From assembly GCA_050250895.1 (NCBI GenBank), contig JBFWNU010000004.1, forward strand, positions 654,934-718,933: a stretch of DNA of 64,000 nt, read 5' to 3'. The notes below the pieces were generated by a model that was not told the DNA's origin, did not search any database, and was given only the letters and a program-made list of their open reading frames with translations. The position numbers and the translations under genes are program-made. This document shows, piece after piece, positions 21,877-61,749 of this stretch; position 1 is the stretch's first letter; the number at the start of each line of letters is the position of its first letter. Origin of the DNA: Vulcanimicrobiota bacterium. Lineage in GTDB: Bacteria > Vulcanimicrobiota > Xenobia > Xenobiales > JADMJV01.

Positions 21877-22434
21877 GTGATGATGCAGAACTATGGCGTT
21901 CGTGGCTTTGGCGTTGGCTTCATGAACGGCACCTACCACGGACGGAACGTCGATTCGGCCGGCACTAGCGCCTCGAAAGTCGAGACCGAGGGCGTGCTCT
22001 CGCTCAAAGAGATGCGAGTGCAGGATGTCGACGGCCACGCCAACCTCGATGTCGGTTTCGTGCCCAACCACTACGGCAAGATGACCCTTTCCATTCTCAA
22101 CCGCGGCCAGGATGCCGATCCCGAAAACTACGTCGAGGCCAACATCGAACTCACGGTAAGCGATGCCAAGCTGCAGGGCCGAGGCTCGTTGCTCAAGCCC
22201 GAGCACGGCTTTAACGCGGTCACCGTGACCGACCGGGGCGACAACGTGCTGATCCGCGCTCAGCGGGGCGACGAGACCCGAGAGTTCATCTTCAGCAACG
22301 GCTACATCTCAAACCACGCTGGCGATGTGCGAGTCGCCTTCGAGAAACTCTACGATCCCGACCACCCCATCGACCTGATCGACGCCGCCGATTTCATCGT
22401 CGTTGGCGGCATCACCGTCGACAAGAACACCTAA
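21877..22434 (+). CDS. hypothetical beta-rich protein with the shared C-terminal motif
   Basis: Ends LIDAADFIVVGGITVDKNT; no signal peptide. Confidence 0.75.
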   Translation: MMMQNYGVRGFGVGFMNGTYHGRNVDSAGTSASKVETEGVLSLKEMRVQDVDGHANLDVGFVPNHYGKMTLSILNRGQDADPENYVEANIELTVSDAKLQGRGSLLKPEHGFNAVTVTDRGDNVLIRAQRGDETREFIFSNGYISNHAGDVRVAFEKLYDPDHPIDLIDAADFIVVGGITVDKNT

Positions 22435-22455
22435 ACCTCGTCACCGCGGCGAGTC

Positions 22456-22718
22456 GGGTCCGGGCAGAGGCCCGCCAGAGTCGCCCTCAAAGCGGCGGCG
22501 AAGTCGCGCTCCGGCGGCGCGATAGACTTCCGGCGGGAAGAGCCCGAGGCGGGCCGGGTGGGTCCGGGCAGAGGCCCACGATGGTCTTCCAGCTGGAAGT
22601 GGCCTCGGCGGACAAGTCGCGCTCCGGCGGCGCAATAGACTTCCGGCGGGAAGAGCCCGAGGCGGGCCGGGCGGGTCCGGGCAGAGGCCCACGATGGTCT
22701 TCCAGCTGGAAGTGGCCG
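22456..22718. repeat. tandem array of about 2.3 x 113-bp units
   Basis: GGGTCCGGGCAGAGGCCC x3; CTTCCGGCGGGAAG at 22527 and 22640; CTTCCAGCTGGAAG at 22586 and 22699. Confidence 0.9.
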
Positions 22719-23005
22719 CGGCGGGCCGGCCCAGAATATTGCGATACCTTAACATTCTCAAATTCGGCATTGCGCCCGAAGGCATCTCGGTCTCAAATCC
22801 AGCCAGAGACGGCCCTGGAAAGCGCCACGAGCCAGAGAACCCGTTAGCAGATTGATCGAGTCATTTTTGACGGGATCTCCTGCCTCACGGCATCCTGGAA
22901 ACCCAAAAACACCGTAACCACGCCATTTCGACGCATTGATCCACGCGTGTCTCTGAAGTAAAATAGGATCATTCCTTGATTCTTTTTCAGCCCGGAGGTC
23001 TTCCC

Positions 23006-24337
23006 ATGTCTTCTACTCTGTCTGAGCTTTCACACTCGCTGCAGCAACTCTCTCATCAAGAACTACACCAGAGCAACCGCCAGGCTAGCCGGCGAGCCTT
23101 CGGCTGTGAGTGGGAACTGGCCGGTCACCTGCTGGCCACCGAACGCAGCGGCCTCTACCGCCACATGGGTTCCGGCAGCGTGGTCGGCTACGCCGTCACC
23201 CACCTGAATCTACATCCTCAAAAGGCCGGCGAACTTCTCAGCCTGGCCAGGGTGTTCGAGCAGCTGCCCCTTCTCTCGGCCGCCTTTCGCGAAGGGAAGC
23301 TCTGCTGGAGCAAGGCCCGCGCGCTCAAGCGCATCGCGACTCCCGACAACCAGGCAGAAATGCTGGAATTCGCTCTCAAGAACAAAGCCCAGGCGGTCGA
23401 GCGCGCCGTCGCTCTCACCCCAACGCAGCATAAGCGAGGCCAGGCCTTGAAGGCCTCGCTCGAAGCCCGCCAGATTCAACCCGAACGATCCTTTAGCGAG
23501 CAACCCACGACGCCAGCAGCGCCAGTCGTCCAGTCGGCGCCGACGCGCAAGCCGGCGCCGACCCCCGAGATGCCGAAGTTAAGACAGGTCACTCTGCTGC
23601 TGACCGCCGAGCAATATGCCATCCTCGAGCAGGCGAAGGGTCTGGTCGAAGCCCGGCAGGGCAAGCGAGTGAGCAAAGAGACGGCGGTGACCGCGATGGC
23701 CGCGACGTTCCTCGCCACCGCGGACAGCCGCAGCAAAGTGAGGCATCAGGTCATCGTTCATGTGAATGGCCAGACCGGTCAGGGCTTCTATGACACCGAC
23801 CGTGGACTCTTGCCGGCCGAGCCCGCCGCCGTTGACGAGGCGATGAAACAACCCGGCATCGTGGTCGTTGCCGCCCCCACCGTTCTTCCAGCTGGAAGTC
23901 AGGCCCCACTTCCAGCTGAAGCGAGCCAGGCCGAACAGTTGCCGCTACTGCCAAATCAGTCCAAAGCCAGGCCGGGACTGCCGGTGGGCCTGGTGCGAGC
24001 GGTCTACGCCCGCGCCTTCGGTCGCTGTGAGCGATGCTCGTGCGGTGGCGGCAACCTGGTGGTGCACCACGTTCGGGCCTGGTCCGAATCCAGGCGACAT
24101 CGGCTCGAGGACTTGCAGCTATTGTGTCCGGGATGCCACGCCGCCGAGCACGACAAAGACTTCGCGACTAAGCCAGCATGGAAGGCCGCGCGGGAGGCCG
24201 CCGTGCGCAGCCGGACCCGACCAGGCACAAGGTCAGAGGCTGAGCTGATACCAAAGCGGACCGGCGACGAAATTCAGCACGGAGCCGCGTCCGAACGACT
24301 GCAGCGAGTCGGGCTCGGCAGGCCAGGTAAAACTTAG
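23006..24337 (+). CDS. DUF222-like/HNH endonuclease
   Basis: SD GGAGG; LPLLSAAFREGKLCWSKAR; RCERC...VVHHV...LQLLCPGCHAAEH. Confidence 0.8.
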   Translation: MSSTLSELSHSLQQLSHQELHQSNRQASRRAFGCEWELAGHLLATERSGLYRHMGSGSVVGYAVTHLNLHPQKAGELLSLARVFEQLPLLSAAFREGKLCWSKARALKRIATPDNQAEMLEFALKNKAQAVERAVALTPTQHKRGQALKASLEARQIQPERSFSEQPTTPAAPVVQSAPTRKPAPTPEMPKLRQVTLLLTAEQYAILEQAKGLVEARQGKRVSKETAVTAMAATFLATADSRSKVRHQVIVHVNGQTGQGFYDTDRGLLPAEPAAVDEAMKQPGIVVVAAPTVLPAGSQAPLPAEASQAEQLPLLPNQSKARPGLPVGLVRAVYARAFGRCERCSCGGGNLVVHHVRAWSESRRHRLEDLQLLCPGCHAAEHDKDFATKPAWKAAREAAVRSRTRPGTRSEAELIPKRTGDEIQHGAASERLQRVGLGRPGKT

Positions 24338-25003
24338 CTCTTCTTCGCCGTCCTGGCCTAGGTGCACCAGAGCCCGACGTTCAGGCTCGCGATGGATGTC
24401 GCTGAGATCGAGTATCAAGCCTTGCGGCGACTCGACCACCGCATGGATCACACCATCGATGCGATCCTTTAGTAGGCGGTGGCGTCCGTCGGCCTCGATC
24501 GACGAGACGGCGCTCAGAATGTCTCCGTTGTAATACTGGTATGTGCACAGCAGTCCCCGCCGGGTAAAATTGAAGGTGGGCAGGTCAAAGGTGCAGGGAC
24601 TCTCGAGCCCCACCTCGGTACCATTTCGCTCGAAGCACCTGAAGCGGCAAAAATCGGCCTCGTCGAAATAGCCGATCCAGAATCGGTCGCGCTCATCGAT
24701 GAGCACGTTCTCGATCGCTTCCCCCAGCACGAAACGGGCCTCCAGTTCTCCGGATGGCGACAAGATGGCGGCGTTCTGGTCATCGGGCTCTTCGCAGCGG
24801 CGATAAACGACGAGAGCGCTGCCATCGCTGAACAAGTCCAGCCGCGGCAGCGCGCCGTTTAGGGTCACCTCGAGGCAGACCCTTCCCCCGGTAGTGGACA
24901 CACGCCATAGTTTGGCGAGACGGTCTCCCTCGGGCGGGGTTCGCCAGAAGGGACGGAACTCGTCGGGCTCGCCGATGTCTGGGGGGACCGTGACGATGGT
25001 CAT
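24233..25003 (-). CDS. hypothetical beta-propeller-like protein
   Basis: SD AGGAGG; NAAILSPSG...LGEAIENV...WIGYFDE. Confidence 0.7.
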   Translation of the reverse strand: MTIVTVPPDIGEPDEFRPFWRTPPEGDRLAKLWRVSTTGGRVCLEVTLNGALPRLDLFSDGSALVVYRRCEEPDDQNAAILSPSGELEARFVLGEAIENVLIDERDRFWIGYFDEADFCRFRCFERNGTEVGLESPCTFDLPTFNFTRRGLLCTYQYYNGDILSAVSSIEADGRHRLLKDRIDGVIHAVVESPQGLILDLSDIHREPERRALVHLGQDGEEELSFTWPAEPDSLQSFGRGSVLNFVAGPLWYQLSL

Positions 25004-25012
25004 CCGCCTCCT

Positions 25013-25483
25013 TTAGCCCCAGAAGGCCGGGTCGGGTGGGCGCAGGAGGCCGGTGAACTCGTCGCCGGGAGTGCGGAGGATGGTCAGGGACATGGCCGAC
25101 GGCTCGAGTCCGCCGAAGCCCTGGAGGCATTCGAGCTGAGCCTGGGCGTGGAGCTGGGGCTCCTCCTTGCCCAGGCGGGTCAGGAGTTGGTCGAACTCGG
25201 GGACGCCGGCCTTCTCGATGGCCTGGCCCAGAGGCGAGGCTAGCGCCCCAGCGGCGACCATCAGGGTCAGTTGCTGGGCGATGCGAGCCATGGCCTGGCC
25301 GCGAAAGCCGACGCCGGTCACGCCGGCTTTGATGTCGGTGGTCGAAACCTGTAGCTGGTCGGCCAGTTCGCCCGAGAGCTGGGCCATGTCCTCGAAGCTC
25401 CGGGGCCTGGACTGGATGCGCTGGGTCTGGCTGGGTGTAAGCATGCGCCGAAGGGCGGCTTCGGCAGTTGGACGGATGTTCAT
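25013..25483 (-). CDS. hypothetical protein
   Basis: Leaderless ATG after the motif promoter; begins MNIRP. Confidence 0.7.
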   Translation of the reverse strand: MNIRPTAEAALRRMLTPSQTQRIQSRPRSFEDMAQLSGELADQLQVSTTDIKAGVTGVGFRGQAMARIAQQLTLMVAAGALASPLGQAIEKAGVPEFDQLLTRLGKEEPQLHAQAQLECLQGFGGLEPSAMSLTILRTPGDEFTGLLRPPDPAFWG

Positions 25484-25521
25484 AGCCACATCTTAGCCGG
25501 CCCACCTGAGATTCTCCTTGA
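25484..25521 (-). promoter_or_regulatory. direct-repeat promoter (candidate regulon motif)
   Basis: TCAAG-N6-CTCAG-N10-TAAGAT-N6-ATG. Confidence 0.65.
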
Positions 25522-25525
25522 CCGC

Positions 25526-26404
25526 CTATCCGGGAGCGCGACTGGGTACCAGCATCACCGGGCAAACCGAGCCCCGCACGACGTTCTCGGCTACGCTACC
25601 GCAGATGAAGCGCTGAAATCCGCGGTGACCGTGGGTGCTCATCACGACCAGGTCGACGTTGTGCGACTGGGCTACCTCAAGCAAAGCTCGGGCTGGGGAG
25701 CCCACCTGCCAGATTGTCTCGACGCGAAACTCCGGTTGCAGGCTGGCGGCCATCTCGTTGAGATAGCTGCGAACCTCGGCCAATTGGCCTTCATGCCCGT
25801 CGAGGACCGAGGGCAAAGACTGATCGAGGTGGGCAGTGTCCAGGACTCGACACAGCACGAGGGTTGCCCCGCTGGCACGGGCCAGTTCGCGGGCCTGGTC
25901 GAGGGCTCGAGCCGACAGCTTCGAGCCGTCGAGGGGCACCAGGATCTTGCGAAGCGAACTCAGTTTAACCGACTGCGAACGCACCACCAGAATGGGCAAT
26001 TCGGCCCCTCGTAGGACCTCTTCGGTGGTGCTGCCCAGCAACCACCGGGCAAAGCCCGAGCGACCGTGCGTGGTCAGACAGAGCAGGTCGGCCTTCTCCT
26101 CGCGACAGATGTCGATGAGGGTGTTCGAGGCCAGGCCGAAGGGTGTCGCCGTGGCCACGGTCAGGCCCTCGCCTTCCAACTCGGCCGCCCGTTCTTTGAG
26201 ATACTCGTCGACCAGTTGCTGGTCTTTAGAGTTGACCGGAGCGTGAAAGACGACCTCTTGCCCGTAGGCCAAAGGAAGGGCGGGGGGAAGCACGCGCACC
26301 AGCAGCAATCTCCCCTGGTGTTGGCGAGCCAGGTCTACGGCAGGCTCGAGGGCCCGTTCGGCTAAAGTCGAGCCGTCTAGAGCGACGACCACAGTGTAGG
26401 ACAT
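25526..26404 (-). CDS. tandem-domain universal stress protein
   Basis: Two Usp domains: VVALDGS...THGRSG..LGS and ILVPLDGS...STHG..GSVAE. Confidence 0.93.
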   Translation of the reverse strand: MSYTVVVALDGSTLAERALEPAVDLARQHQGRLLLVRVLPPALPLAYGQEVVFHAPVNSKDQQLVDEYLKERAAELEGEGLTVATATPFGLASNTLIDICREEKADLLCLTTHGRSGFARWLLGSTTEEVLRGAELPILVVRSQSVKLSSLRKILVPLDGSKLSARALDQARELARASGATLVLCRVLDTAHLDQSLPSVLDGHEGQLAEVRSYLNEMAASLQPEFRVETIWQVGSPARALLEVAQSHNVDLVVMSTHGHRGFQRFICGSVAENVVRGSVCPVMLVPSRAPG

Positions 26405-26463
26405 AGAAGACTCCTCTCTGGGTCTAGTCTAGGGGAACGGTCAGGGCTTGAAACTGATCCGCG

Positions 26464-26898
26464 TCATCCGGCGATGTCCGAGGTGACCCACCCCTCGACG
26501 GCGGACGCTTGCTTGACCCAGTCAACGAACTGTTGCTCGTCGAGGGGCTCGTCCTCGAAAACGTGGAGGTAACGCACCTTCTCTTGCTTGGAGTTCACCG
26601 GCGGCATCGGCTCGAGCGCGGCGCCGTGGAAGAAGGCCACTTTGATGTATTTGGTGAGGCAGTGGAAGCTCAGAAACCAACCCAGGCCCTCGACGCCATA
26701 GAAGGGCGAGTTCCACTTCACGGCTTTGCGCAGCTCGGGAACGGTAGCCGTGACCAGCTCGTCGAGGCGGCGGCCGACGCCACTCTTCCAGCCAGGCATC
26801 GCTGCGATGTAGGCTTGCACCGGCTCATCGCCATAGCCCATTTCGATTTGCGGATTACCGCCGGAAAGGAGTTTGGGTTCTTTCGGTTCTTTGGCCAT
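26464..26898 (-). CDS. DUF1801 (YdhG-like) protein
   Basis: LLSGGNPQI, AMPGWK, AVKWNSPFYG, FFHGAAL. Confidence 0.85.
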   Translation of the reverse strand: MAKEPKEPKLLSGGNPQIEMGYGDEPVQAYIAAMPGWKSGVGRRLDELVTATVPELRKAVKWNSPFYGVEGLGWFLSFHCLTKYIKVAFFHGAALEPMPPVNSKQEKVRYLHVFEDEPLDEQQFVDWVKQASAVEGWVTSDIAG

Positions 26899-26907
26899 CT
26901 TTCGATG

Positions 26908-29254: not shown

Positions 29255-29271
29255 ACGGAGGTCCCATTGGT

Positions 29272-29812: not shown

Positions 29813-30655
29813 GTGCAGGGTTCGTCCGTCAAAGCCGCCCATCAGCTCGCCCAGCGAGGCTGGCGCTTCACCGTGCCCGGTTCTCGGGGCCCGTTTGACG
29901 ATCCCATCGAGTATTCACCCGATCGCGTCTGCCAGAGTATCGAGGGCAACCGCTATTTGATCATGCGCGGACCCGACGGAACGGCTCTCAGAGCCTACTC
30001 TCCGCTCTATGTCGAGGCCGCCGAGCAACTCTATGGAGGCAACTGCTCGGACCGCCTCAACCTCGAGCAGCTGACCCAAGGCAATCGCCAGCTCGGTCTG
30101 CGAGTAGCCGCCCAGCTCCTCGGCAACCCGGGATTGACGGTCGAGATGGCCCTGGCCGAGCTAGCCTTCAGCGAGTCACTGACCAGCCAGCAGTCTGACC
30201 AGGAAGAAGCAGCTGGCGCGGCCTTCGCGATGGTCACAAAGCCGGTCGAAGGAACCACTCAGACCGAGCGCCAGCAGCTATTCACAGAACTTCACCAGGG
30301 AGTCAGCCAGAACTTTCGCCCCGAGGTCTACCAGCGCTCTTTAGACCACACTCAAAGGCTGTACGAGTTGCTCACCGCCAAACCGCCGGCTCGACTAGAC
30401 GAGGTGACTTCGGTCATGGCCAACCTGGTGACTCGCCTCGATCCCAAGGACTGGAAGCTTGCCGTCGAGGCCACCGCCCGGGCTGTTGAGGGACCCAACT
30501 GGCCCGCCAGCTACCTGCGGCTCAGAGAATTGGCCCAGAGACGCCCGGTGGACGAGACGGTGGCCGGCTTGAAAGAGCTCAACCGCGGGCCGCTCGAGGT
30601 TCGTGAAGAGGTCGATGCGGTCTGGATCGGCTCGGTTCGTCTCGAACTCGACTAG
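29813..30655 (+). CDS. hypothetical helical protein with the shared C-terminal motif
   Basis: Ends VREEVDAVWIGSVRLELD; no signal peptide. Confidence 0.75.
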   Translation: MQGSSVKAAHQLAQRGWRFTVPGSRGPFDDPIEYSPDRVCQSIEGNRYLIMRGPDGTALRAYSPLYVEAAEQLYGGNCSDRLNLEQLTQGNRQLGLRVAAQLLGNPGLTVEMALAELAFSESLTSQQSDQEEAAGAAFAMVTKPVEGTTQTERQQLFTELHQGVSQNFRPEVYQRSLDHTQRLYELLTAKPPARLDEVTSVMANLVTRLDPKDWKLAVEATARAVEGPNWPASYLRLRELAQRRPVDETVAGLKELNRGPLEVREEVDAVWIGSVRLELD

Positions 30656-42423: not shown

Positions 42424-43395
42424 ATGAAGCTAAACTCTATCAGTAAGCGAGAAGCTGTTCAACGTCTCAAGGCCTGGCAGGCGCGTCTGCTGGATACAGA
42501 GCAGACTGCCGCGGCGTCGGCCGTCTACCAGGCCCGCCACCGCCTGGAGGAAGCTGAGGGCGAAACGCTCTTAGAGACCTATTCGCGGGCACGGAACAGG
42601 ACCAACGACTGCCAGAAGGTCCACGAAGCCGTCATGAAAGAGAGACGGGACACCGGTCCGGCGCTGCTGGTTGGCGCGGGCTCGCTGGCACTGGGCATCT
42701 CTTCCTATCTAAGTACGGCCAGCCTGAACTTTGCCGCGATATGCACGCTGACATCGGCCTCCCTGGTGCCGATCTGGGGAGCCTGCCGGGGCGTCTTCGA
42801 GGTGCTTGCCGGCAAAGACTATACCGGGGTCCTGGCGGCTGGGTGCACGGCCGGCCTGGCCACCATGGCCGTAGCCGGCGTGTCACCTTCAGGTTGGCAA
42901 CTGAGCCTGGCGGCTGCCGCCATCACCACCGGTGGGCTTTTCGCCACGGCCTTCGGGGCGCAAAAGATGGCCGACCACTATGGCCAGATCAAAATGGCCG
43001 TAGAAGAGAACCTCGAGGTCTTCAACCGGCCGCCCCAGGCTGGTCCGAGCCTGAGCGCCAGGTGTAGCCGTCAAATGGTGTTGGAGACACTCGACAAGCT
43101 GACCGATCGGGCCCTCGAAGCCTCTCAATCCGACCAGGCCAGGCAACTCCAGCAGGAGCGGAGGGTCCTTGACGGGCTCGAGGGGAGCAACTTTCTGGAA
43201 ATGTTCGAGGACAGCCAGGCCCGGCAGCCAGGAGCGCGGGTCGTCCTCCAAAAGCATGCGAGAGTCGTTCTCCAGGTCGTTCGCGACCGCGACCAGATCG
43301 AGACCATGGCCAGAGGGTCTGCGGTCATGGGCCAATTGGTGGTCCGGGACGAATGGGTGGACGTAGGCGGCCAAGGCGTGCCGGTGCGCGACTAA
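42424..43395 (+). CDS. multi-TM hypothetical protein with the shared C-terminal motif
   Basis: Central Gly/Ala-rich hydrophobic helices; ends LVVRDEWVDVGGQGVPVRD; start uncertain. Confidence 0.7.
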   Translation: MKLNSISKREAVQRLKAWQARLLDTEQTAAASAVYQARHRLEEAEGETLLETYSRARNRTNDCQKVHEAVMKERRDTGPALLVGAGSLALGISSYLSTASLNFAAICTLTSASLVPIWGACRGVFEVLAGKDYTGVLAAGCTAGLATMAVAGVSPSGWQLSLAAAAITTGGLFATAFGAQKMADHYGQIKMAVEENLEVFNRPPQAGPSLSARCSRQMVLETLDKLTDRALEASQSDQARQLQQERRVLDGLEGSNFLEMFEDSQARQPGARVVLQKHARVVLQVVRDRDQIETMARGSAVMGQLVVRDEWVDVGGQGVPVRD

Positions 43396-46955: not shown

Positions 46956-48488
46956 CTATAGGAAGGCAGGCTTCTTGTTCATGAACGTAGCCAGACCGTT
47001 CCAGCCAAACGACGGCACGCCGAAGCCCTGAGGATTCTGGCCCGGCTCGGCCAGGGGATGAAAATACTCGTAGAAATCGGCCCGGTCGAGCGCCTCGAAA
47101 GTGGAGCTGCGAATCTTCTCGGACATGGCCCGGGCCAGCACATTATCGGGATTGCTCTTGAGGTGCTGCTCAAGACCGCAGCGGGTGAAAAAGTTGACGA
47201 TGACCCAGATATTGCCGCGCCAGTAGTGGTCGTTGGGATTCTCGAGCATCTGCGTGGGCACGCTGGGATCGTCGAGCGAGGTCGTGGGCACGCTATACCC
47301 GTCGGGCGGATTGAACTCGCCGGGATTGAGCAAATGGTTGGCAATCAGGCTGGTCCCATGGGGCTCGCCCTCGAGCAGCATGGGATAGAACATGGCGGCG
47401 CTCTTGACCGGCGACTTGCGCTCGCCGATGAGGTCGCAATACTTGTCGCCATCCCACATCTTCTCGAAGATGGCAGCTTTGACTTCGTCGGCCCGCTGCT
47501 GATAGTGGTCGGCCCGGTCGGGCTGGTCGGCGGCTTGATACAACCGCGCCAGACACTCGAGATTCTTGGCGTAGAGAGCGTTGAAATCGACCGGTTTGAC
47601 GGCGAAGTCGCCGCTCTCGAAGATCTTGTCGAGGTCCCAGTCCAGGGCCTTATACTTGCAAAACAGACCCATCTTACGCACATCGATCTGGCTGCGCTCG
47701 ATGGGAGCCTCGGGCCGCCCCAGGCCGATGGTCTCGTCCCAACGCTGGCTATTGTCCCAGCCGCTCTCCCAGGGATGGATGATGCGGACCAGGCCGTCCT
47801 CGTCGGCCCGCCGGTCGTGAAGATAATCATAGTAGGCCGAAAGCTTCGGCAGCATTTCTCCGAGAAAGGCCTGGTCGTCGGTAGCAGCCTGCAACTCGAG
47901 AGCGGCCATGGCCAGGATCGGAGGCTGGGTGATATCAGAGTGCACCGGGCTCGACCAGTAGCCCTGACAGAATTCAGCGCGCTCGCTCTCGGGCACCAAC
48001 CGGCGACCGTCGGGCGAGTCGAGAAAACGCTGGTAATGCGGCTGGGCCCAGGTCGGCACCCGGCTGCCGTCGCCGTGGAAGTAGTTCATGTGGGGCACGA
48101 AGCCCAAGTCTTTCGAGGCGGGGTCGCGATTCTGGTTGGCGAAAACGGCGCGCAGCTCGGACTGAGCCACCTCGGGCTCGGTCCAGGCTAGATTCATGAC
48201 GTGAGCGGCCGAGTCCCAGAGCCATTGCTTGCCACCATAGTCGAGGCGCGAATCTTGAGCGCCGTCGCAGCGACTGGGAGTGGTGAAGGTATGCTCGGCG
48301 CCGGCGGGGTCGACGACCTTGACCCGATTACCGCTGAGAATCTGATAGGCTTTGAGGGTCACGGCCATGTCGCGTTCGCGCTGGGCCGCTCCCAGCTCCA
48401 GCTGGTCTTTGGGTCCAGAACTGGTGGGACGGGTGGCTGACCGAACCACGGGACGTGACGGCAGGCCGGGGAGTGAAGTGATGAGCAT
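46956..48488 (-). CDS. GH63/MGH1-like (alpha/alpha)6 glycoside hydrolase
   Basis: QWLWDSA, ITQPP, HPWESGWDNS, YWRGNIW, FYEYF, FGW. Confidence 0.85.
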   Translation of the reverse strand: MLITSLPGLPSRPVVRSATRPTSSGPKDQLELGAAQRERDMAVTLKAYQILSGNRVKVVDPAGAEHTFTTPSRCDGAQDSRLDYGGKQWLWDSAAHVMNLAWTEPEVAQSELRAVFANQNRDPASKDLGFVPHMNYFHGDGSRVPTWAQPHYQRFLDSPDGRRLVPESERAEFCQGYWSSPVHSDITQPPILAMAALELQAATDDQAFLGEMLPKLSAYYDYLHDRRADEDGLVRIIHPWESGWDNSQRWDETIGLGRPEAPIERSQIDVRKMGLFCKYKALDWDLDKIFESGDFAVKPVDFNALYAKNLECLARLYQAADQPDRADHYQQRADEVKAAIFEKMWDGDKYCDLIGERKSPVKSAAMFYPMLLEGEPHGTSLIANHLLNPGEFNPPDGYSVPTTSLDDPSVPTQMLENPNDHYWRGNIWVIVNFFTRCGLEQHLKSNPDNVLARAMSEKIRSSTFEALDRADFYEYFHPLAEPGQNPQGFGVPSFGWNGLATFMNKKPAFL

Positions 48489-48539: not shown

Positions 48540-49451
48540 CTACTCGCCCGCCAGCACGTAGCCGGCGGCGGCGCCCGCCACAGCGCCCAGCCCGCCCACG
48601 ATCAGAGCCATTTGCATCGTCACCGGACTGGCCAGCCGTAGAGGGTTGGCCAGCGCCGGAACCATCACCGCAAACGTTCCCAGGGCGCCACCGAGGCCGG
48701 CCCCGATCAGCATCGAGCCGAGCGGGTCGCTCTGCTCGCTCTGAACGGTTGCAGTGCGCAGCAGGCCCGAGGCCTGGCCGAAGTTGCGCCGGGCCGACTG
48801 CACCTGACGCTCGCTGTCACCGAGCTCGCGGTCCATGAAGCCAAGTTCGCGCTCGATGCCGCGCAGGCTGTTGCCCACCAGGATGCCGTCCATCGACACA
48901 TCCACCCCGGGTTGGTCCATCTGGATCTGGCGGATGTGCATATCGGCCATGCGGACCTCGCGTTCGATGTTGCGATTACCGTTGTCAAAGCGGCGCCAAC
49001 CAATCCCGAGCGAGTCGACGGCTTGCGAGCCCTCTTCGAGCTGGGTAGCCGCCTGGCGCACTCGACCCAGCCGCTCGTCGCCGGCGGCCTCGAGATCCCG
49101 CAAAAGATCGGTCATGCTCTGTTTGGCCAGATCGACGCCGCGGTCGAGTTGGCCGTATTCCACCTCGCCCCGGCGCATCTGCATGGCCGCCGAATCGAGC
49201 TGGCGCGAGCCGTTGTCGAACTGCCGGTCGAGCTGATAGCCGGCCCAGCTCGAGTCGGTGGCGCGAGTGTCACGCTGAGCCTGGCTCTGGGGCATCCACG
49301 CCTGATCGAAATCGCGCTCGGCCGAGGCCAGATAGCGTTCGGTCTGAGAGTGGGTCTGACTGACCCGGTCAAGAGACGTGTTCGAGCCGTCAAGCTGGGC
49401 GGCCAGGCGCGCCAGGCGAGCGGCGAAAGGATCGCTTGCTGAGATGACCAT
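48540..49451 (-). CDS. coiled-coil protein with internal duplication and C-terminal glycine-zipper TM hairpin
   Basis: Two ER....A.M....Q.D....D.S..G repeats; GAGLGGALG and GGLGAVAGAAAG. Confidence 0.75.
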   Translation of the reverse strand: MVISASDPFAARLARLAAQLDGSNTSLDRVSQTHSQTERYLASAERDFDQAWMPQSQAQRDTRATDSSWAGYQLDRQFDNGSRQLDSAAMQMRRGEVEYGQLDRGVDLAKQSMTDLLRDLEAAGDERLGRVRQAATQLEEGSQAVDSLGIGWRRFDNGNRNIEREVRMADMHIRQIQMDQPGVDVSMDGILVGNSLRGIERELGFMDRELGDSERQVQSARRNFGQASGLLRTATVQSEQSDPLGSMLIGAGLGGALGTFAVMVPALANPLRLASPVTMQMALIVGGLGAVAGAAAGYVLAGE

Positions 49452-51764: not shown

Positions 51765-52385
51765 TTACCCTCCGTGCTTGAAATTGGCCAGTCCCGTGCT
51801 GGCCGCCAGCCAGGCGCCAACAGCAGCCACCACCTGGCTATCTCTAGCCAGGCAAAAGCGGGTAGAGAGGGCGTTGATCGATTCGCCGGGGTTTACCAGA
51901 TAGACCTGACTGCTTCCAGTGCTGCTGCCTCGAAACAGCTGCAGACTGGCCCGCGAGAAGTCTTGCTCGTGCACTCCCCAGGGCGATTTGCGATATTGGG
52001 TCAGTCGGCCCGGAGCCAACTCCCAACGCAACTCGGTGACTAGCTCGCGGACGGCCAGGCCCCATAGCAGCAAGCTAATCAGCAAGAAGAGAAAAGTGAC
52101 CAGGGCCGGGCTGACGAAAAAGCCGGCTCCGGCAGCGGTGCCCCCGATCATGAAAAGCACCGCCGACATGAAGGCGTGCGAACGGGGCTGGGTCAGAACC
52201 AAGCGACCATCCCGCCGCTCGAACGTATAATGACGCGTCAACTCCTCGGGCGGCTCTAACTCGGCCACCTCCTGGCCCCCCTCGACTACCGGCGCGGCCG
52301 TATGCAAGTCTGCCGAGCACTGATAACAATTCTGGTCAGATTGACGATTCTGACTGCCGCAACCCGGGCAACGCAAATATCTCAT
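51765..52385 (-). CDS. zinc-ribbon membrane protein
   Basis: CPGCG...CYQC followed by two TM helices. Confidence 0.75.
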   Translation of the reverse strand: MRYLRCPGCGSQNRQSDQNCYQCSADLHTAAPVVEGGQEVAELEPPEELTRHYTFERRDGRLVLTQPRSHAFMSAVLFMIGGTAAGAGFFVSPALVTFLFLLISLLLWGLAVRELVTELRWELAPGRLTQYRKSPWGVHEQDFSRASLQLFRGSSTGSSQVYLVNPGESINALSTRFCLARDSQVVAAVGAWLAASTGLANFKHGG

Positions 52386-52444
52386 ATAGGAAAATTCCAG
52401 CCGGCAAGTCAAAACTCCTGGGCAACGATGGCGCGCTCGGTGGT

Positions 52445-54110
52445 CCCGGCCCGGCCGCCTTCGGCGGGGCGGGGCGAACCCAGACTTCCAGCTGGAGGAC
52501 CGGCCCACGGGGCAGCGGCCTGGCCAGCTCCGCACGGAACACGAGCGGTCGCGAGCGCCCGGTAGCCGGGGCGAGGGGAGCACGGCCGCCTTCGGCGGGG
52601 CGGGGCGAACCCAGACTTCCAGCTGGAAGACCGGCCCGCGGGGCGGCGACCTGGTCACTTCCGCACGGAAGACGAGCGGTCGCGAGCGCCCGGCAGCCCG
52701 GGCCGGAGACGACCGCCTCGGGGGGGGCGGGGCGAACCCAGACTTCCAGTTGGAAGACCGGCCCGCGGGGCGGCGACCCGGCCAGCTCCGCACGGAACAC
52801 GAGCGGTCGCGAGCGCCCGGCAGCCGGGGCGAGGGGAGCACGACCGCCTTCGACGGGGCGATTCAACCCCCCAGACTTCCAGCTGGAAGACCGGCCCACG
52901 GGGCAGCGGCCTGGCCAACTCATCTGGCCACTTCCGCACGGAAGACGAGCGGTCGCGAGCCGAATCGCCCGGCCGCCCGGGCCGGAGCACGACCGCCTTC
53001 GACGGGGCGATTCAACCCCAGACTTCCAGCTGGAAGACCGGCCCACGGGGCAGCGACCTGGCCAACTCACGTGCCACTTCCGCACGGAAGACGAGCGGTC
53101 GCGAGCCGAATCGCCCGGCCGCCCTGGCCGGAGCACGACCGCCTCGGCGGGGTGGGGCGAACCCAGACCTCCAGCTGGAAGACCGGCCCACAGGGCAGCG
53201 ACCTGGCCAGCTCATCTGGCCACTTCCGCACGGAAGACGAGCGGTCGCGAGCGCCCGGCAGCCCGGGCCGGAGCACGTCCGCCTCGGCGGGGTGGGGCAA
53301 CCCAGACTTCCAGCTGGAAGACCGGCCCCCGGCGCGGCGATCTGGCCAGCTCACCTGGCCACTTCCGCACGGAAGACGAGCGGTCGCGAGCGCCCCGCAG
53401 CCCGGGCCGGAGCACGACCGCCTCGGCGGGGTGGGGCGAACCCAGACTTCCAGTTGGAAGACCGGCCCGCGGGGCGGCGATCTGGCCACTTCCGCACGGA
53501 AGACGAGCGGTCGCGAGCGCCCGGCAGCCCGGGCCGAGGGGAGCACGACCGCCTCGGCGGGGTGGGGCGAACCCAGACTTCCAGTTGGAAGACCGGCCCG
53601 CGGGGCGGCGACCCGGCCAGCTCCGCACGGAACACGAGCGGTCGCGAGCGCCCGGCAGCCGGGGCGAGGGGAGCACGACCGCCTTCGACGGGGCGATTCA
53701 ACCCCCCAGACTTCCAGCTGGAAGACCGGCCCACGGGGCAGCGGCCTGGCCAACTCATCTGGCCACTTCCGCACGGAAGACGAGCGGTCGCGAGCGCCCG
53801 GTAGCCGGGGCGAGGGGAGCACGGCCGCCTTCGGCGGGGTGGGGCAACCCAGACTTCCAGCTGGAAGACCGGCCCCCGGCGCGGCGATCTGGCCAGCTCA
53901 CCTGGCCACTTCCGCACGGAAGACGAGCGGTCGCGAGCGCCCCGCAGCCCGGGCCGGAGCACGACCGCCTCGGCGGGGCGGGGCGAACCCAGACTTCCAG
54001 CTGGAAGACCGGCCCGCGGGGCAGCGTGGCCACCTCACCTGGCCACTTCCGCACGGACGACGAGCGGTCGCGAGCGCCCGGCCGCCTGGGCCGGAGCACG
54101 TCCGCCTCGG
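52445..54110. repeat. tandem mosaic array of 12 units of about 127-146 bp (REP/BIME-like)
   Basis: CCCAGACTTCCAG(C/T)TGGAAGACCGGCCC near 52481, 52611, 52738, 52871, 53017, 53162, 53301, 53441, 53572, 53705, 53848 and 53988, alternating with CTTCCGCACGGAAGACGAGCGGTCGCGAGC. Confidence 0.95.
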
Positions 54111-54205
54111 CGCCTCGGCGCCCTTTGCGGTTAGCCCATCGAGCTCAAACCGACCGGCTACGACAAGCGATCCAGAGGCGCTCACCCCCAGCGCACCGGA
54201 TTGCC

Positions 54206-55171
54206 TCAGGTGAACTTCGAGAGGTAGTTGTAGCCGAAGTGACTGCCCGTGTCGTCGATGACGGTCATGTTGGGGTTGTCGGTGAAGATATCGTGGGTGA
54301 GAAACTCTTTGCCCAGCAGCTTGCGCGGCTCGAGGCCAAGTTGGGGGGCGGTTCGCGACAGCGACTTCCAGACCAGTTCGGCGCAGCCGAAGCCGTCGTC
54401 GCTGCCCTCGCCGCGCAGTTTGTACATCAGGTCGAAGCCTTTGCCCACATGAGTGCGGGCCTCGGCCACGGCGGCCTGAGCTTGCTCCTGGTCGCGATAG
54501 GCCGGGCGTAAAATCTTGACGTGCTCGTTCTCGCCCATCACTATGGCGGCGGGGCGCTCGATCACGCCACATTCAATCAGGCTGTCCACGGCCTGACCGT
54601 CACCGGCATAGAGGCCGACATGGACCCAGGAAGGGTTCGAGCCGGTCAGGCCGCCCATCACCTCGAGGTCGAGCCAGGTGTCCGAGTTGGTCACGATGAC
54701 ATCACCCGGTTCCATCTTGTCGAGCATCTGCTGCACACGCTCGGCGCTGGGGCGGGGGTGCGAAGTGTAACTGGGATCCCAGAGCTTCTTGGGCAGCGAG
54801 CCGAGGGTGAAGCCTTTCGTCTCGTCCTGCATTCGGGGCGAGAAGACATCGAGGCCGAGGCCGTCCATGGCCGCGCCCAGGCCGGTGCCGACCACCCCTC
54901 CGACCATTCCCCCCACCATCCGGCCAACCGGGAAAACGCCCTCGAAACGGCGGCTCTTGAACTCGACATAGACCCCGGTGGCAAAGCCCGCCACCGCGCC
55001 CGCCACTTTGGCTGCCGGCCCAAAACTGTCGCACAGTTCGGCTCCGAGCTTGGCCGTCACGAAGGGTACGGCCAGACGTGTGACCAGCGAACCGGTAGCT
55101 GCACCAAGACTGCCCATCGCCTTGCGATTGACGTGGCGGGCCGGAGAAGAGGCCTGATTCTGGATTCTCAT
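54206..55171 (-). CDS. permuted papain-like NlpC/P60 (YiiX/C92) protein with N-terminal glycine-zipper helices
   Basis: PGDVI, WVHVGLY, ILRP, VGKGFD, GCAELVW. Confidence 0.82.
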   Translation of the reverse strand: MRIQNQASSPARHVNRKAMGSLGAATGSLVTRLAVPFVTAKLGAELCDSFGPAAKVAGAVAGFATGVYVEFKSRRFEGVFPVGRMVGGMVGGVVGTGLGAAMDGLGLDVFSPRMQDETKGFTLGSLPKKLWDPSYTSHPRPSAERVQQMLDKMEPGDVIVTNSDTWLDLEVMGGLTGSNPSWVHVGLYAGDGQAVDSLIECGVIERPAAIVMGENEHVKILRPAYRDQEQAQAAVAEARTHVGKGFDLMYKLRGEGSDDGFGCAELVWKSLSRTAPQLGLEPRKLLGKEFLTHDIFTDNPNMTVIDDTGSHFGYNYLSKFT

Positions 55172-56327: not shown

Positions 56328-56418
56328 CGTGGTCCATTCTGGCGACCATCGACTTCCCCTCTCCAGCAAAACAGAAGGAGGATGAATTCACTCTGAGGAA
56401 ACCAGTGGATGGAGGTTG

Positions 56419-57947: not shown

Positions 57948-57957
57948 TCTCTTCCCT
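57919..57957 (+). promoter_or_regulatory. direct-repeat promoter (candidate regulon motif)
   Basis: TCCAG-N6-TTAAG-N10-TAGTCT-N7-ATG. Confidence 0.7.
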
Positions 57958-60900
57958 ATGCAGGTAGGGAATCTCACTTCATCCATCGTCTCCGTACGCC
58001 GAGCCGCCGCTAACGCCAGCAGCGACGGCCTGGCGGCCTCTGAAGAAGCCGCCTTTTCGACCTTTCTCGAGTATGGGGAAGGTCTCGACAGCCTCTCGCG
58101 CCCCGAGTATGCTCGCAGCCTGGCCTGGCTTTCTCGGCAGCAGCTCGACGCCGGCAAGCCTTTTGCTACCTATCAGGGTCTGGTCGAAGGCAAGCTCGAG
58201 ACCGTCGAAGTCAAGTATCACGACCTCGTCGTGGGCAAGTTCGTGCCCGACTTGCTGGCCAAGCCCGAGAGTCTCGAGAAGATGCTCAAACCCGTGGCCA
58301 CCAGTCTGGCCAGACTCGACGCTGCCAGCGCCAAAGCTCTGGCCGGCGAGCACGCGACGAGCCTGGTGGAACGGGCCAACTATCTAGCCGGACTGTGTCA
58401 GCGCCTGCCTTCGGCCAGCGCCCAGGCTCTTTACCAGGCGGTAGCCGCCCAACCCGACTGGTCGCAGGCGACCGGGTTCGGGACCGCTCTCCTTGACGCT
58501 CGTCCCGATGCCCCCGGCACCGAATGGGCCAAAGCCTTCGCGCATCAGGCCGAATTGGCCAAATGGCCGGGCAATCTGCAAGCGGCCGCCCAGGCTCTCT
58601 ATCTGAAGACCTTCGCCGCCACCGGCCAGGCCGACAAGGCCAATCAAGAAATGGCCCGCTGGCAACCTGCCCTGACCAGCCTGGCCCGGCCCGAGTTGGC
58701 AACGAGCCTGGTAGGATTGGCCGGCTCGGGTCTGGAGCCGGCCCGGGTGACCGAGACCCTGCAAGCCCTTAGTCCCTCAGGGCAAGACGCTCGTGTGATC
58801 GACTTCGAGAGGCTCAACGCCGGCCTTCAAGACGGCACGGCCAGCTGGAGCTTATTGGAAAAGCTCGAAACTCGGCCCCGCAACTGGGTCAAGTCAGCGC
58901 CCGACGCCGTGGCTCTGGCCACTCAGCTTTGTCCCGACGCCCAGGAGCGCTGGCAACTGGCCGCCCGCATTCTCGAATCGAACTCGGCCAAATGGTTGGG
59001 CGAGCTCGTTGGCCAGCCCAGCCAGTTGTTCGAAGCTCAACAGCCCTGGGCCTATGCCCGCACGGCCGCCGGCCTCGGCTGGACCGAGAGTCCCAACGGC
59101 AACTATGCTCCCAACCTGAACACCAGTTTGACGACTCCAGCCATCGACCTGGCCGGACTCCAGTCGCCGCGGGTCGAGCTGCGCTACCAGTGCGCGACCG
59201 AGGCCGGCTCGGATCGATGCCACCTGGAAGTGGCCGGAGAAGATGGCCAGTGGAAGTCACTGGGCTCCATGACCGGCAAGGTCTCGAACGGCTTTCAAGA
59301 GACCGAACTGTCCGAGTTCAAAGACCAGAAGGTCCGTCTGCGCCTACGCTTTAGCAGCGACAGCTCGAATCAGGGCGACGGGTTTCTGCTCGAGCATATG
59401 GCGGTTTCGGGCCGAACCGAGCAGGGCCAGTCCGTTCCGTTCTGGTATTCGGCCGGGCCTCGCGAGACGGCCGATGTGCTCGACCGTTACGCCAGCCTGG
59501 GCGCCAGCCAGCGGACCGACTATCTGGCCGGCCTCAAAAGGCTGATGGAGAGCGTCGAACGGCCCGAAGCCGCTCTGGCTCTCAGTGGAGCCGTGACCGG
59601 CAACCCTGGTGACCCCGGCTATGTCGACGAGTGCGGGAGGCTGGGTCAACTGGCCCGGCTGACCGACCTTTCGCCCGCCATCGAGCTGTGGCCAGGCCTG
59701 CACGACCGCCCTTCGGCCGACCTGGCTCGCCTGGGCTCGCTGTGCCGGCGGGCCTGGAGCGACCAACCCTCGCGAGAGGCGGGTCTGCAACGCCTGGCCC
59801 TGGCCAATCTGACCAGCGGGCAACTCGAGCGCCTCGAGCGGCTGGCCGATTCTACCGACGCCTTGCTCGCTGGATGGACGGTGCCGGTGGGCAGCTGGGG
59901 CTGGGAGCGCGATCCTGACCACGGACTGGTGCTGGCCGACAGCCCCGGAGGCAACTACGGCAACAATCAGGACCTCGCGCTGGTCTCGCCCGAGTTGACC
60001 ATTCCGGCCGAACTGCCTCGCCTGTCCTTCGAACGAGCTTACGTGATTGAAAATGGCGGCGACAAGGTCCACCTGGAGTTCTGTCCCGTGGGCGGAGAAT
60101 GGAGTCCGCTTCGCACCTACACCGGCAAGTCCGACTGGCAGCAGGAGAGCTTGAACCTGGCCAGCCTGGCCGGACGCAAAGGACGCCTTCGTCTGCGCCT
60201 GACCACCGATTCCAGCAACGTTTATGACGGCATCAAGCTCGCGGGACTGCGCTTGACCGGGGCCCACGACGAGCGCCCCATCGAAATGCCCTCGGGCGGA
60301 GTCAGCCTGGGCGAAGTGCTTGATTCCGTGAGTCGCACCAAGCCCGAGGCCCGAGAAGAGCTGCTGGCCAAACTCGAATTGCTGACGCCGCTGGCCGGCG
60401 AAGTGGGCCTGGCCATGCGGGTGATGGAGAGCGGTGGTGACTCGGAAACAGTGGCCATGGCCCGCCGTTTCGGCAGCCAGACCGCCCTGGAACTGAGCCG
60501 AGAATTTCCGGGGTTGTCCGAGCGCTCGGCTCGGCTGGCCGAGCGTCTTCACCGCTGCCTGGGCGAGCGGCCCGAACCGACCTATTGGGGCGAGACCGCC
60601 CGTCAGCTCGACGCCCATCCCGAATGGCTCGAACCGCTCGAGGAGCTGGTCGGTCCCGAGCCGGCCGCGGCCAACCTTCACAGCGGTTGGGGATTGGAGC
60701 GCGCCCCTGAGCTGGGGCTCGTATGGAGCGACAGTCCCGGGCGCAACTACGCCGACAACACCGACAACAGCCTGGAGTTGGAGCCACTCTCGTTGTGGGG
60801 GAAAAGCCAGGGCAAGCTGTCGTTTGAACTCACCAGCGCTCTCGAGAAAGACGGCGACAAGCTGCTGGTCGAGGCGGCCACCCACGGGGGCGCCTGGAGC

Positions 60901-61749
60901 ACCCTCGAGAAGTTCACCGGCAACCAGCCCTGGCAACGACACACCGTCGACTTGTCTCCCTTTGACGGGCAGAAGTTTCGACTGCGCTTTCGCCTGGTCA
61001 GCGACAGCAGCAAGAACTTCGACGGAGTCAAGCTCAATCGCATTCGGGTCGAGGCCCAGGACAGCCGGGGCAATCCCGAGCGCCTTTTCAACTTCGAGCC
61101 CGGCTCGCCGCACATGGTCGACTTGTTGGACGCCCTGCGAGCTGACCGCGGCCTCAAGAACAGCGCCGCCCATCTCGAGGTGCTCAGAGGGATCAGCGCC
61201 GACCTGGGAGGCTTTAGCCAGGCCGTGAGCTTGTGGCCGGTGGTCGAGAAGAGTCTGGAACATCCCCAGGGCGAAGCCGCCTTGACGGCCGTGCAAAAGC
61301 TGGCCCAGCGAGCCGGTGTGGCCATGACCAGTCAGTTGGCCCCGGCCGTGCTCTCGCAGCCCCAGATTACTCCGGAGATGAGCGAGCGCCTGGGCAATCT
61401 CGGCGAAGCCGCCCAGGGGTTGGGGCTCGAATCCAGTTTACTGCAGTGGCTGGCCGGCCGCGTGTTGCTCGAGCCCGACACGGCCAAACTCAAAGGGTTG
61501 CTGAGCAACCTTGGTCACGACCAGGCCACCGAGATCCTCACCGCCTTGCAAGCCAAAGCCAGGGTCCTGGAGGGAAGGGTGACCCTGGCCGAGGCCCTGG
61601 GGCGGCTGGCCGTGCTGCGCCTGGCCTCGGAGAACAGCACCACCGCTCAACTGCTAGATTCCCTCTTCGCCGAACTTTCCCGCACCGACTTCGAGCGGGG
61701 CGAAGACTGGCTGCAGGTGGGCGATCAGGTGGTACCGGTGCGCGAGTGA
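57958..61749 (+). CDS. large protein with three immune-inhibitor-A/MAM-like beta-sandwich repeats and the shared C-terminal motif
   Basis: Three copies of (D/E)SP..NY..N...L......E...D...E....W..L...TG......L...RLR.R...DSS...DG; ends FERGEDWLQVGDQVVPVRE. Confidence 0.85.
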   Translation: MQVGNLTSSIVSVRRAAANASSDGLAASEEAAFSTFLEYGEGLDSLSRPEYARSLAWLSRQQLDAGKPFATYQGLVEGKLETVEVKYHDLVVGKFVPDLLAKPESLEKMLKPVATSLARLDAASAKALAGEHATSLVERANYLAGLCQRLPSASAQALYQAVAAQPDWSQATGFGTALLDARPDAPGTEWAKAFAHQAELAKWPGNLQAAAQALYLKTFAATGQADKANQEMARWQPALTSLARPELATSLVGLAGSGLEPARVTETLQALSPSGQDARVIDFERLNAGLQDGTASWSLLEKLETRPRNWVKSAPDAVALATQLCPDAQERWQLAARILESNSAKWLGELVGQPSQLFEAQQPWAYARTAAGLGWTESPNGNYAPNLNTSLTTPAIDLAGLQSPRVELRYQCATEAGSDRCHLEVAGEDGQWKSLGSMTGKVSNGFQETELSEFKDQKVRLRLRFSSDSSNQGDGFLLEHMAVSGRTEQGQSVPFWYSAGPRETADVLDRYASLGASQRTDYLAGLKRLMESVERPEAALALSGAVTGNPGDPGYVDECGRLGQLARLTDLSPAIELWPGLHDRPSADLARLGSLCRRAWSDQPSREAGLQRLALANLTSGQLERLERLADSTDALLAGWTVPVGSWGWERDPDHGLVLADSPGGNYGNNQDLALVSPELTIPAELPRLSFERAYVIENGGDKVHLEFCPVGGEWSPLRTYTGKSDWQQESLNLASLAGRKGRLRLRLTTDSSNVYDGIKLAGLRLTGAHDERPIEMPSGGVSLGEVLDSVSRTKPEAREELLAKLELLTPLAGEVGLAMRVMESGGDSETVAMARRFGSQTALELSREFPGLSERSARLAERLHRCLGERPEPTYWGETARQLDAHPEWLEPLEELVGPEPAAANLHSGWGLERAPELGLVWSDSPGRNYADNTDNSLELEPLSLWGKSQGKLSFELTSALEKDGDKLLVEAATHGGAWSTLEKFTGNQPWQRHTVDLSPFDGQKFRLRFRLVSDSSKNFDGVKLNRIRVEAQDSRGNPERLFNFEPGSPHMVDLLDALRADRGLKNSAAHLEVLRGISADLGGFSQAVSLWPVVEKSLEHPQGEAALTAVQKLAQRAGVAMTSQLAPAVLSQPQITPEMSERLGNLGEAAQGLGLESSLLQWLAGRVLLEPDTAKLKGLLSNLGHDQATEILTALQAKARVLEGRVTLAEALGRLAVLRLASENSTTAQLLDSLFAELSRTDFERGEDWLQVGDQVVPVRE

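Follow-up and report, generated by a model that had tools for sequence, protein, structure and literature searches.

Short terminal tags shared by otherwise unrelated proteins have been the first sign of most protein-sorting routes, among them LPXTG, PEP-CTERM, the C-terminal domain (CTD) of type IX secretion system (T9SS) substrates and the cargo peptides of encapsulins. The signals of type I secretion are uncleaved and lie within the last few tens of residues; the substrates have no Sec signal, tend to be acidic and Cys-poor, can be very large and may be unrelated to each other. Here, we describe a C-terminal tag on four proteins encoded in a stretch of 64,000 nt (the window, C4:654934-718933, on contig C4) of the genome of a Vulcanimicrobiota bacterium, uncultured and from soil/sludge, which comprises 9,497,728 bases on 17 contigs with a G+C content of 63%. 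The tag is a real, selected and modular element at or near the C-terminus of Sec-less, largely unannotatable proteins that have a promoter class in common. It is similar to type I signals (HlyA/RTX-type and non-RTX) in its terminal position, in the missing Sec signal and in the acidic, Cys-poor carriers, but type I signals are poorly conserved, whereas the tag is sharply conserved, foldable and has a near-invariant turn residue. RTX repeats were not seen in the tagged set.

The cargo-loading peptides of family-1 encapsulins are another system for comparison. In these, a linker leads to a short motif, h-x-h-G-[SD]-h (h, hydrophobic), and the tag is like them in that alternating hydrophobic residues around a Gly follow a linker on unrelated, Sec-less cargo; the ...W-I-G-S-V-R-L... 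tail of one window protein, P0002, is most alike to the h-x-h-G-S-h type. The encapsulin peptides have no counterpart to the acidic strand-loop-strand part upstream in the tag, and about 80 carriers, membrane-type proteins included, do not suit a nanocompartment. Unlike PEP-CTERM, LPXTG, GlyGly-CTERM and MYXO-CTERM, the tag has neither a transmembrane helix nor a basic cluster, its carriers have no Sec signal and the 7-10 residues from the Gly to the end are polar or acidic in this genome. That it matches none of the LPXTG, PEP-CTERM and GlyGly-CTERM signals had been stated in an earlier note on this DNA and was upheld by a search of 76 tails against the NCBIfam models (E<=1). The T9SS CTD is a beta-sandwich of about 70-100 residues on Sec-exported proteins, whereas the tag has ~20 residues and sits on Sec-less carriers; no Pfam family was found on more than one of the 76 tails, and T9SS machinery genes were not searched. 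With the E-block substrates of the Dot/Icm type IVB system the tagged set has in common a repertoire of Sec-less "dark" proteins that is large, specific to the lineage and fast-evolving, and an acidic stretch followed by hydrophobic residues, but the Dot/Icm signals have no conserved Gly turn and no fixed register. C-terminal targeting peptides without a transmembrane helix thus have precedents, and a dedicated reader would make the tag a new system.

All four tagged genes of the window are on the + strand. P0001 (21877-22434, 185 aa) is beta-rich and ends in LIDAADFIVVGGITVDKNT (tag core ~22375-22431, stop codon 22432-22434); its tag scored 34.3 bits and the protein matched no Pfam or NCBIfam family. 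P0002 (29813-30655, 280 aa) has the weakest tail of the four, the I-G-S variant VREEVDAVWIGSVRLELD (tag core ~30599-30652, 23.8 bits), and was without a Pfam match at E<=0.1 and with sub-cutoff NCBIfam matches only. P0003 (42319-43395, 358 aa from the first GTG) is composed of an N-terminal coiled-coil-like part, Gly-rich hydrophobic segments and the tail LVVRDEWVDVGGQGVPVRD (tag core ~43336-43392, 28.5 bits); since the ATG at 42424 (MKLNSISK...) matches the start of the paralogs, it is probably the true start. P0004 (57958-61749, 1263 aa) contains repeated InhA-like MAM/choice-of-anchor-J domains within a helical scaffold (Pfam PF20773 at 1.8e-13, NCBIfam NF038128 at 33.6 bits with a cut-off of 30) and ends in FERGEDWLQVGDQVVPVRE (tag core ~61690-61746, 35.6 bits). 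Tagged paralogs of both P0003 and P0004 are encoded elsewhere in the genome. Translation of the four open reading frames (ORFs) gave the tails exactly as first described, with the Gly 7-8 residues from the end, and none of these tails had a significant match in Pfam or NCBIfam.

The tag is not restricted to the window. A loose regular expression, applied to the 85,839 stop-to-stop ORFs of >=60 aa of the whole genome, found 65 tails, and the motif Gly was placed 7, 8 and 9 residues from the C-terminus 17, 38 and 31 times, compared to 3-16 times for each other distance between 4 and 39. An iterated position matrix with a cut-off of 15 bits retrieved 80 ORFs with a terminal hit (Gly 7-10 from the end) and 9 internal hits, three of which come within 11-15 residues of the end. 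At the rate of the internal hits, 0.23 would be expected at the terminus; the pattern is far above chance, and the claim of many matches confined to the last ~20 residues was borne out; since the matrix was trained on terminal hits, the Gly distances from the loose expression are the independent count. Of the 80, two or three are false positives or questionable (the end of a YkuD transpeptidase, a probably spurious ORF of 111 aa and one weak hit), and 77 are included in the gene set called by codon-position G+C. Seven further genes have variant tails in which the Gly is changed to Asn (V-N-D-[IF]) or displaced (I-D-G-F); no other change of the anchor Gly is seen in the seven genes, as would be expected of a turn residue. 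Together, about 10 variants come on top of the 80, and the tag is present on ~80-90 proteins, or ~1% of the genes. The consensus reads [S/P/A/T/G/E-rich, about 6 residues]-L-E-h-[DE]-[DE]-[DE]-x-[LVI]-x-[VI]-G-[D>G]-[FIQV]-x-[LVI]-[PDE]-[VIRK]-x(1-3)-COOH.

The tag is maintained by selection at the protein level and is not a copied DNA cassette. All four Gly codons are used at the invariant position (GGC 54, GGT 11, GGG 9 and GGA 4 times), the conserved Leu is encoded by six codons, and pairs of tails have a median nucleotide identity of 0.49 over 51 nt, with more than 0.8 in 2 of 3003 pairs. The carriers had been described as otherwise dissimilar and, indeed, the 80 tagged ORFs fell into 56 groups without BLAST links at E<1e-5 after the last 30 residues had been cut off. 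Nine PQQ-type propellers, five large proteins with a common N-terminal domain and the four-member P0003 family are the largest of these groups. In 61 of the 80 ORFs no Pfam domain was found at E<=0.001; the others are 9 PQQ_2 propellers, 3 WD40/PD40 proteins, 3 InhA-like MAM proteins including P0004, one S33/S9 hydrolase, the YkuD false positive and 2 ORFs with sub-threshold Pfam matches.

Sec-like signals were detected in none of 75 tagged proteins, compared to 328 of 1500 background genes (21.9%), and the claim that Sec/Tat signals are missing held by this crude hydrophobicity heuristic. Furthermore, the tagged proteins are more acidic than the background (median pI of 5.38 versus 6.02) and contain less Cys (0.63 versus 1.03%), they are up to 1680 aa long, and 31% of them have one or more transmembrane-like segments, which are mostly Gly-rich. 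MAM/choice-of-anchor-J domains and BamB-like propellers are typical of extracytoplasmic proteins, and NF038128, which we take from its NCBIfam definition to be a domain of proteins ending in alternative sorting signals, leads to a further comparison: in P0004, the tag takes the position of the sorting signal, and paralogs with the same domain end differently. None of the 21 BLAST relatives of P0004 is Sec-like and most start, by eye, with M-I or M-x-I-type sequences similar to the leader of the promoter-bearing genes described below; three end in the tag, many simply with the MAM domain and some in a PPQQPPxQG tail. Such variable ends are the "choice of anchor" pattern. The second recurrent tail, ...PPQ(Q/E/D)PPQQPP(S/T/Q)QG(A)-COOH, is present on four proteins (C1:1407480-1409906, C1:1416268-1418511, C2:351389-353716 and C6:346735-347418), and 3 of them are MAM-domain relatives of P0004.

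A beta-hairpin had been proposed for the tag, and the structure predictions agree with this type of fold. An AlphaFold2 model from an alignment of 76 tails over 44 residues has a short helix followed by strands at 26-28, 32-35 and 38-41, with a pLDDT (per-residue confidence) of 81-85 over the tag and 74 on average. The predicted strands correspond to L-E-h, h-x-[VI] and h-x-[LV]-x, with the acidic loop between strands 1 and 2 and the Gly/Asn-Asp turn between strands 2 and 3. In the full-length model of one tagged propeller (T22, alignment of 10 paralogs; pLDDT 81.5, predicted TM score 0.79), residues 1-20 are below 50 in pLDDT, the propeller spans residues 25-371, a helix and a low-confidence linker follow and the last 18 residues form three strands. 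The tag is, therefore, predicted to fold independently of its carrier as a three-stranded beta-meander, tethered by a flexible P/S/A/T-rich linker; such a tethered mini-sheet fits since Gly or Asn occupies the turn and P/S/A/T-rich positions precede the tag.

The libraries contained nothing comparable, and the view that the tails are outside any known domain family withstood scans of NCBIfam and Pfam with the 76 single tails (E<=1): no family was matched by more than one tail, and the single-tail matches in NCBIfam were to four unrelated families, none of them a sorting-signal model. A profile search of the PDB sequences gave one match only, at E=2, and the P0004 tail had no usable match in the ESM Atlas. 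An insensitive tail-profile search of 5.8 billion proteins scored 7997 candidates, of which 9 were at E<=10; a single one of these is named and comes from an Eremiobacterota metagenome-assembled genome (MAG; "Candidatus Eremiobacteraeota bacterium"). No account of such a tag was found in the literature on secretion and C-terminal signals in Eremiobacterota or on Vulcanimicrobium alpinus. As far as these searches go, the tag appears to be uncatalogued, with no model, structure or paper found that describes it.

All genome scans for the tag were made inside the phylum (Eremiobacterota/Vulcanimicrobiota). In the order, a 32-residue tail profile (31 genomes, E<=1) gave 86 matches in the genome itself, 63 in a genome of the same genus and 32-45 in all five genomes of a second family. 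Far fewer were seen in two sister genera, with 0-3 in each of 14 large genomes, and in ten genomes of 2.2-3.5 Mb, which gave 0-2 and of which nine have 2.2-2.6 Mb. In a sample of 121 genomes from the phylum (E<=0.05), further multi-copy lineages came to light: the order contributed another two genera with 4-7 matches, one family at the class level had 7 and 16, and of two families at the phylum level one had 6 and the other 2-3; 95 genomes were without a match and single weak matches look like background. The lineage restriction that had been predicted is, thus, seen as a patchy distribution among the genomes searched, and the tag would be confined to Eremiobacterota as far as these go. Two cargo families, those of P0003 and of a second tagged protein, T10, co-vary with the tag: the P0003 family (four members) was found only in its own genus (2 of the 31 genomes), and the N-terminal domain of the T10 family was matched 5 times in one genome of the other family that has the tag and not at all in four sister genomes that lack it.

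In other lineages the tag has the form ...I-E-x-[GE]-[DE]-[DE]-W-V-x-I-G-[GD]-V-R-[LI]-P-[RV]-[RK], and the tails of P0003 (V-G-G-Q-G-V-P-V-R-D) and P0004 (V-G-D-Q-V-V-P-V-R-E) bridge both versions. The Gly is 8-32 residues from the end at 19 loci of the second family; in nine more distant genomes it is 7-15 residues from the end in 16 of 19 matches and at 32, 32 and 82 in the others. Most tagged proteins of the distant lineages are orthologous to the tagged propellers T05 and T27, one example having 34% identity over 462 aa (E 2e-75). Tag identity (8/17 and 5/18) and body identity (141/404 and 133/310) are similar in distant orthologs and, for this reason, ortholog identity alone is no argument. 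In a search of 1.84 billion representative proteins, T05 had 13 relatives at E<=1e-30; 14 of its best 150 matches, 12 of them within the first 15, have the tag at the end, internal copies were not seen and generic PQQ proteins are without the tag. The core carrier that is conserved throughout the phylum is a PQQ-type beta-propeller. The T05 homologs have generic protein names only, and their source organisms include "Vulcanimicrobiota bacterium" and "Candidatus Xenobiia bacterium LiM19". One tag-bearing homolog of T05, P0016 (469 aa), is labelled as coming from an Armatimonadota MAG, which means that the bin is wrongly labelled or that the tag is also present beyond the phylum.

The tag also links its carriers to a distinctive promoter class. 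A composite element, TTCAG-N5-7-TTTCAG-N9-13-TAnnnT-N4-9-start, precedes 30 of 75 tagged genes and 80 of 7754 others, 110 genes in total by a fuzzy regular expression. The two TCAG-type boxes are spaced by one helical turn, a layout that resembles the direct repeats of response regulators which substitute for a -35 element, and the TAnnnT box follows, the element ending 4-9 nt before the start codon; such a promoter would imply leaderless mRNAs. Three of the four tagged genes of the window have the element directly upstream by the same expression: P0001 (21839-21876, +; TTGAG-N6-TTTCAG-N10-TAGTCT-N6-GTG, abutting the GTG start), P0002 (29775-29812, +, in front of the start at 29813) and P0004 (57919-57957, +; TCCAG-N6-TTTAAG-N10-TAGTCT-N7-ATG). 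For P0003, no promoter of this class was found. Promoter-bearing genes start with M-[QKRLV]-[IV]-x-[PGSA], residue 3 being Ile or Val in 66% compared to 13% in the background, and the five most frequent residues at each of positions 2-17 never include Asp or Glu. A matrix of this N-terminus, trained on untagged promoter genes, marked 19 of 75 tagged and 279 of 7674 other proteins; the overlap of leader and tag is real but partial. The motif M-x-[IV]-x-[PGSA] leads into a P/R/A-rich stretch free of acidic residues and is found on promoter genes with or without the tag. Two window genes on the - strand, 46956-48488 and 48540-49451, have the leader (starts MLITSLPGLP... and MVISASDPFA...) and no tag.

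Taken together, the reading we lean to, at somewhat less than an even chance, is that the tag is an address label for Sec-independent export or for sorting to, or docking at, the cell surface. It is rated first because Sec signals are missing, the composition is like that of type I substrates, extracytoplasmic-type domains are present and the MAM family shows the choice-of-anchor pattern. The label would be recognised by a partner acting in trans and would direct the carriers into this export or surface-docking route; the partner would probably bind by pairing with the edge of the small sheet, and the logic would be like that of type I secretion signals or of the alternative C-terminal anchors of choice-of-anchor proteins. 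A more far-reaching version is possible but rather doubtful. It holds that the tag is the address of a novel export or surface-docking system of Eremiobacterota (class Xenobiia and relatives), which in some genera would serve ~80-100 fast-evolving, effector-like proteins; the cargo would be co-regulated from the tandem-TCAG leaderless promoters, often with an acid-free N-terminal leader, ankyrin proteins would be its immunity or receptor partners and the reader would pair with the edge strand of the mini-sheet.

Several observations weigh against export or surface sorting. First of all, no reader and no dedicated machine for the tag was found. In the genome, which is 99.6% complete, the models for VipB/TssC of type VI secretion (PF05943), for the phage-type sheath (PF04984), for the VirB4 family (PF03135) and for the family-1 encapsulin shell (PF04454) had 0 matches each; other encapsulin families were not searched. 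Within ±4 genes of 77 tagged genes, no dedicated neighbour gene recurred. About a third of the tagged proteins have Gly-rich hydrophobic segments without a signal peptide; their termini may stay cytoplasmic, which would fit a cytoplasmic reader as well as export. Finally, 1-82 residues follow the tag in other lineages and a free C-terminus is, thus, non-essential. A signal for export, for a chaperone or for loading had been proposed in the earlier note: each outcome named there in support was obtained, but the function is still inferred and no reader came to light.

The candidates for a reader fared as follows. An association with secretion or pilus loci had been envisaged, but neither platforms with a type II secretion F (T2SS-F) domain nor FlhA C-domain paralogs co-vary with the tag in the 31 genomes: both are similarly present in the tag-free sister genera and were rejected. 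The genome encodes ~60 GspF/PilC-type platforms, 86 pilin-like proteins and 24 PilT/GspE-like ATPases. GspF-type platforms are near 8 tagged genes with 4.1 expected (p=0.05), but with 60 in the genome they were not retained as partner. Proximity to genes of the pilus or type II secretion type in general was also discarded; it was seen for 12 of 75 tagged genes with 9.8 expected, and as many or more were obtained in 549 of 2000 permutations. In the window, a GspF/PilC-type platform gene (2322-3542) is accompanied by pilin-like genes (3544-4854 and 4839-5240). "Big pilins" of ~600 aa number 27 in the genome, and the large genomes of the order all have 61-97 T2SS-F domain matches. Kinases and histidine kinases were not enriched near tagged genes. 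An ABC transporter, membrane fusion protein and outer membrane protein trio did not recur within 4 genes of tagged genes, with type I components not profiled genome-wide; the only C39-peptidase match is a stand-alone protein of 226 aa and not an ABC transporter.

A protein family with an N-terminal D-S-S-G-x-F-T-L-D ... L-V-Q-A-A-V-x-x-G-A domain is found beside 7 tagged genes, yet it is similar in the tag-free sister genera and was dismissed as reader. Pfam has no match for it, and kinase or TPR parts are attached to some members; the family has at least 61 matches in this genome and 12-60 in all large genomes of the order, but the small genomes gave none. By regular expression, 7 of 26 members adjoin tagged genes; examples of the family are C1:3926513-3927748, C4:103084-104775 and C4:443894-446641.

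The only neighbour with a mild enrichment was an ankyrin-repeat family with signal or lipoprotein leaders, of which 6 of 26 members have a tagged gene no more than four genes away (p=0.007, uncorrected, with about ten families tested). Several are adjacent to, co-oriented and co-operonic with, a tagged gene. Members directly beside the tagged genes T15, T06, T68 and T70 are C1:604123-604881, C4:448848-449873, C9:55119-55859 and C4:232056-233320. Pfam ankyrin repeats were shown on one scanned member (C4:448848-449873), and the N-termini of the members look like signal or lipoprotein leaders. It is a conjecture that the ankyrin proteins are immunity or receptor partners of exported proteins.

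Docking inside the cell would fit most of these data equally well. The tag could be a docking or assembly device by which the mini-sheet attaches many different proteins to a single scaffold, compartment or oligomer, be it intracellular or at the inner membrane, without any export, following a logic like that of dockerins, cargo-loading peptides or foldons. We consider this possible, if well short of probable. It is in line with a predicted folded mini-domain on a flexible linker of unrelated carriers, with the complete lack of Sec signals (0/75), with the 31% of carriers whose ends, next to transmembrane-like Gly-rich segments, are probably cytoplasmic, with the lack of matches to the type VI, sheath and VirB4 markers, and with a form that is reminiscent of encapsulin cargo-loading peptides. 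On the other side are the family-1 encapsulin shell model without a match in the genome and the ~80 carriers of up to 1680 aa, which are hard to fit into a compartment; moreover, MAM/choice-of-anchor-J domains and BamB-like propellers are usually extracytoplasmic and the ankyrin neighbours have signal peptides.

It is improbable that the carriers are substrates of a type III (flagellar-type) system, with the acid-free N-terminus M-x-[IV]-x-[PGSA] as export signal and the tag as a handle for a chaperone, a stand-alone FlhA C-domain or a FliN-type sorting platform. The genome does encode two full-length FlhA/SctV proteins and eight stand-alone FlhA C-domain ORFs (C6:529401, C1:2013982, C1:2475431, C7:121919, C1:1126976, C7:117253, C1:2008860 and C8:31716), as well as five SpoA domains in two clusters, and the acid-poor N-terminus of the promoter genes with its Ile or Val at residue 3 would suit this reading. 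By eye, D-W-V-I-I-G-G-V-R-L in the phylum-wide form of the tag recalls the last hairpin of the FliN proteins of this genome, G-E-V-V-E-I-D-G-x-Y-G-V-R-I-T-E-I. But hhalign gave the tail profile a probability of 0.25% against three FliN-type SpoA domains (FliN/SctQ) and no tail matches PF01052, so that this likeness was rejected, and the N-terminal matrix marks no more than the 19 of 75 tagged proteins. FHIPEP matches are present in all 31 genomes scanned, 2-15 in each, without tracking the tag, and C-terminal-domain-only ones occur even in 2.4-Mb genomes. Both secretins of the genome adjoin a T2SS-F platform gene and are elsewhere on the contig, at least ~340 kb away from either full-length FlhA.

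A degron, which would place a co-regulated set of proteins under common proteolytic control, has an equally slim chance. In this genus the tag is placed at the very end of the protein, its carriers are probably cytoplasmic and they share a promoter class; against this, the tag is predicted to be folded and not extended, it is long and position-specific, it is kept on orthologous propellers across families of the phylum, and up to 82 residues follow it in other lineages. That the tails have no shared function and are the end of one diverged domain family, a recent DNA cassette or an artefact of ORF calling is most unlikely and largely refuted: the last strand of the MAM domain (..D-N-[IV]-x-[IV]-x-G-D..) is superficially alike and nine carriers are paralogous propellers, but 56 groups are unlinked without the tails, a linker separates tag and folded body, the tails have diverged as DNA, 77 of the 80 ORFs belong to the coding-frame gene set, generic PQQ proteins are without the tag and no Pfam or NCBIfam family spans it.

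Irrespective of its function, the tag marks ~1% of the genes of a bacterium that has a large genome and belongs to a phylum with hardly any cultured members. Most of these genes are without a recognisable family, and the 20-residue profile of the tag offers a computational handle on a functional class of "dark" proteins and a route to the reader. If the carriers are exported effectors, this would bear on the suspicion that Eremiobacterota with large genomes live as predators or competitors; for one marine family of the phylum, "Ca. Eudoremicrobiaceae", such a lifestyle has been suggested (PMC9259500).

Apart from the tagged genes, the window contains a tandem repeat array at 52455-54112 with ~12 copies of a unit of 131/146 bp that holds short palindromes. 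The gene set is empty from 52842 to 54520, and a called ORF on the - strand (51765-52841) runs ~390 bases into the array. The 2 kb around the array (52001-54000) have a G+C content of 72% and a strong skew of A over T.

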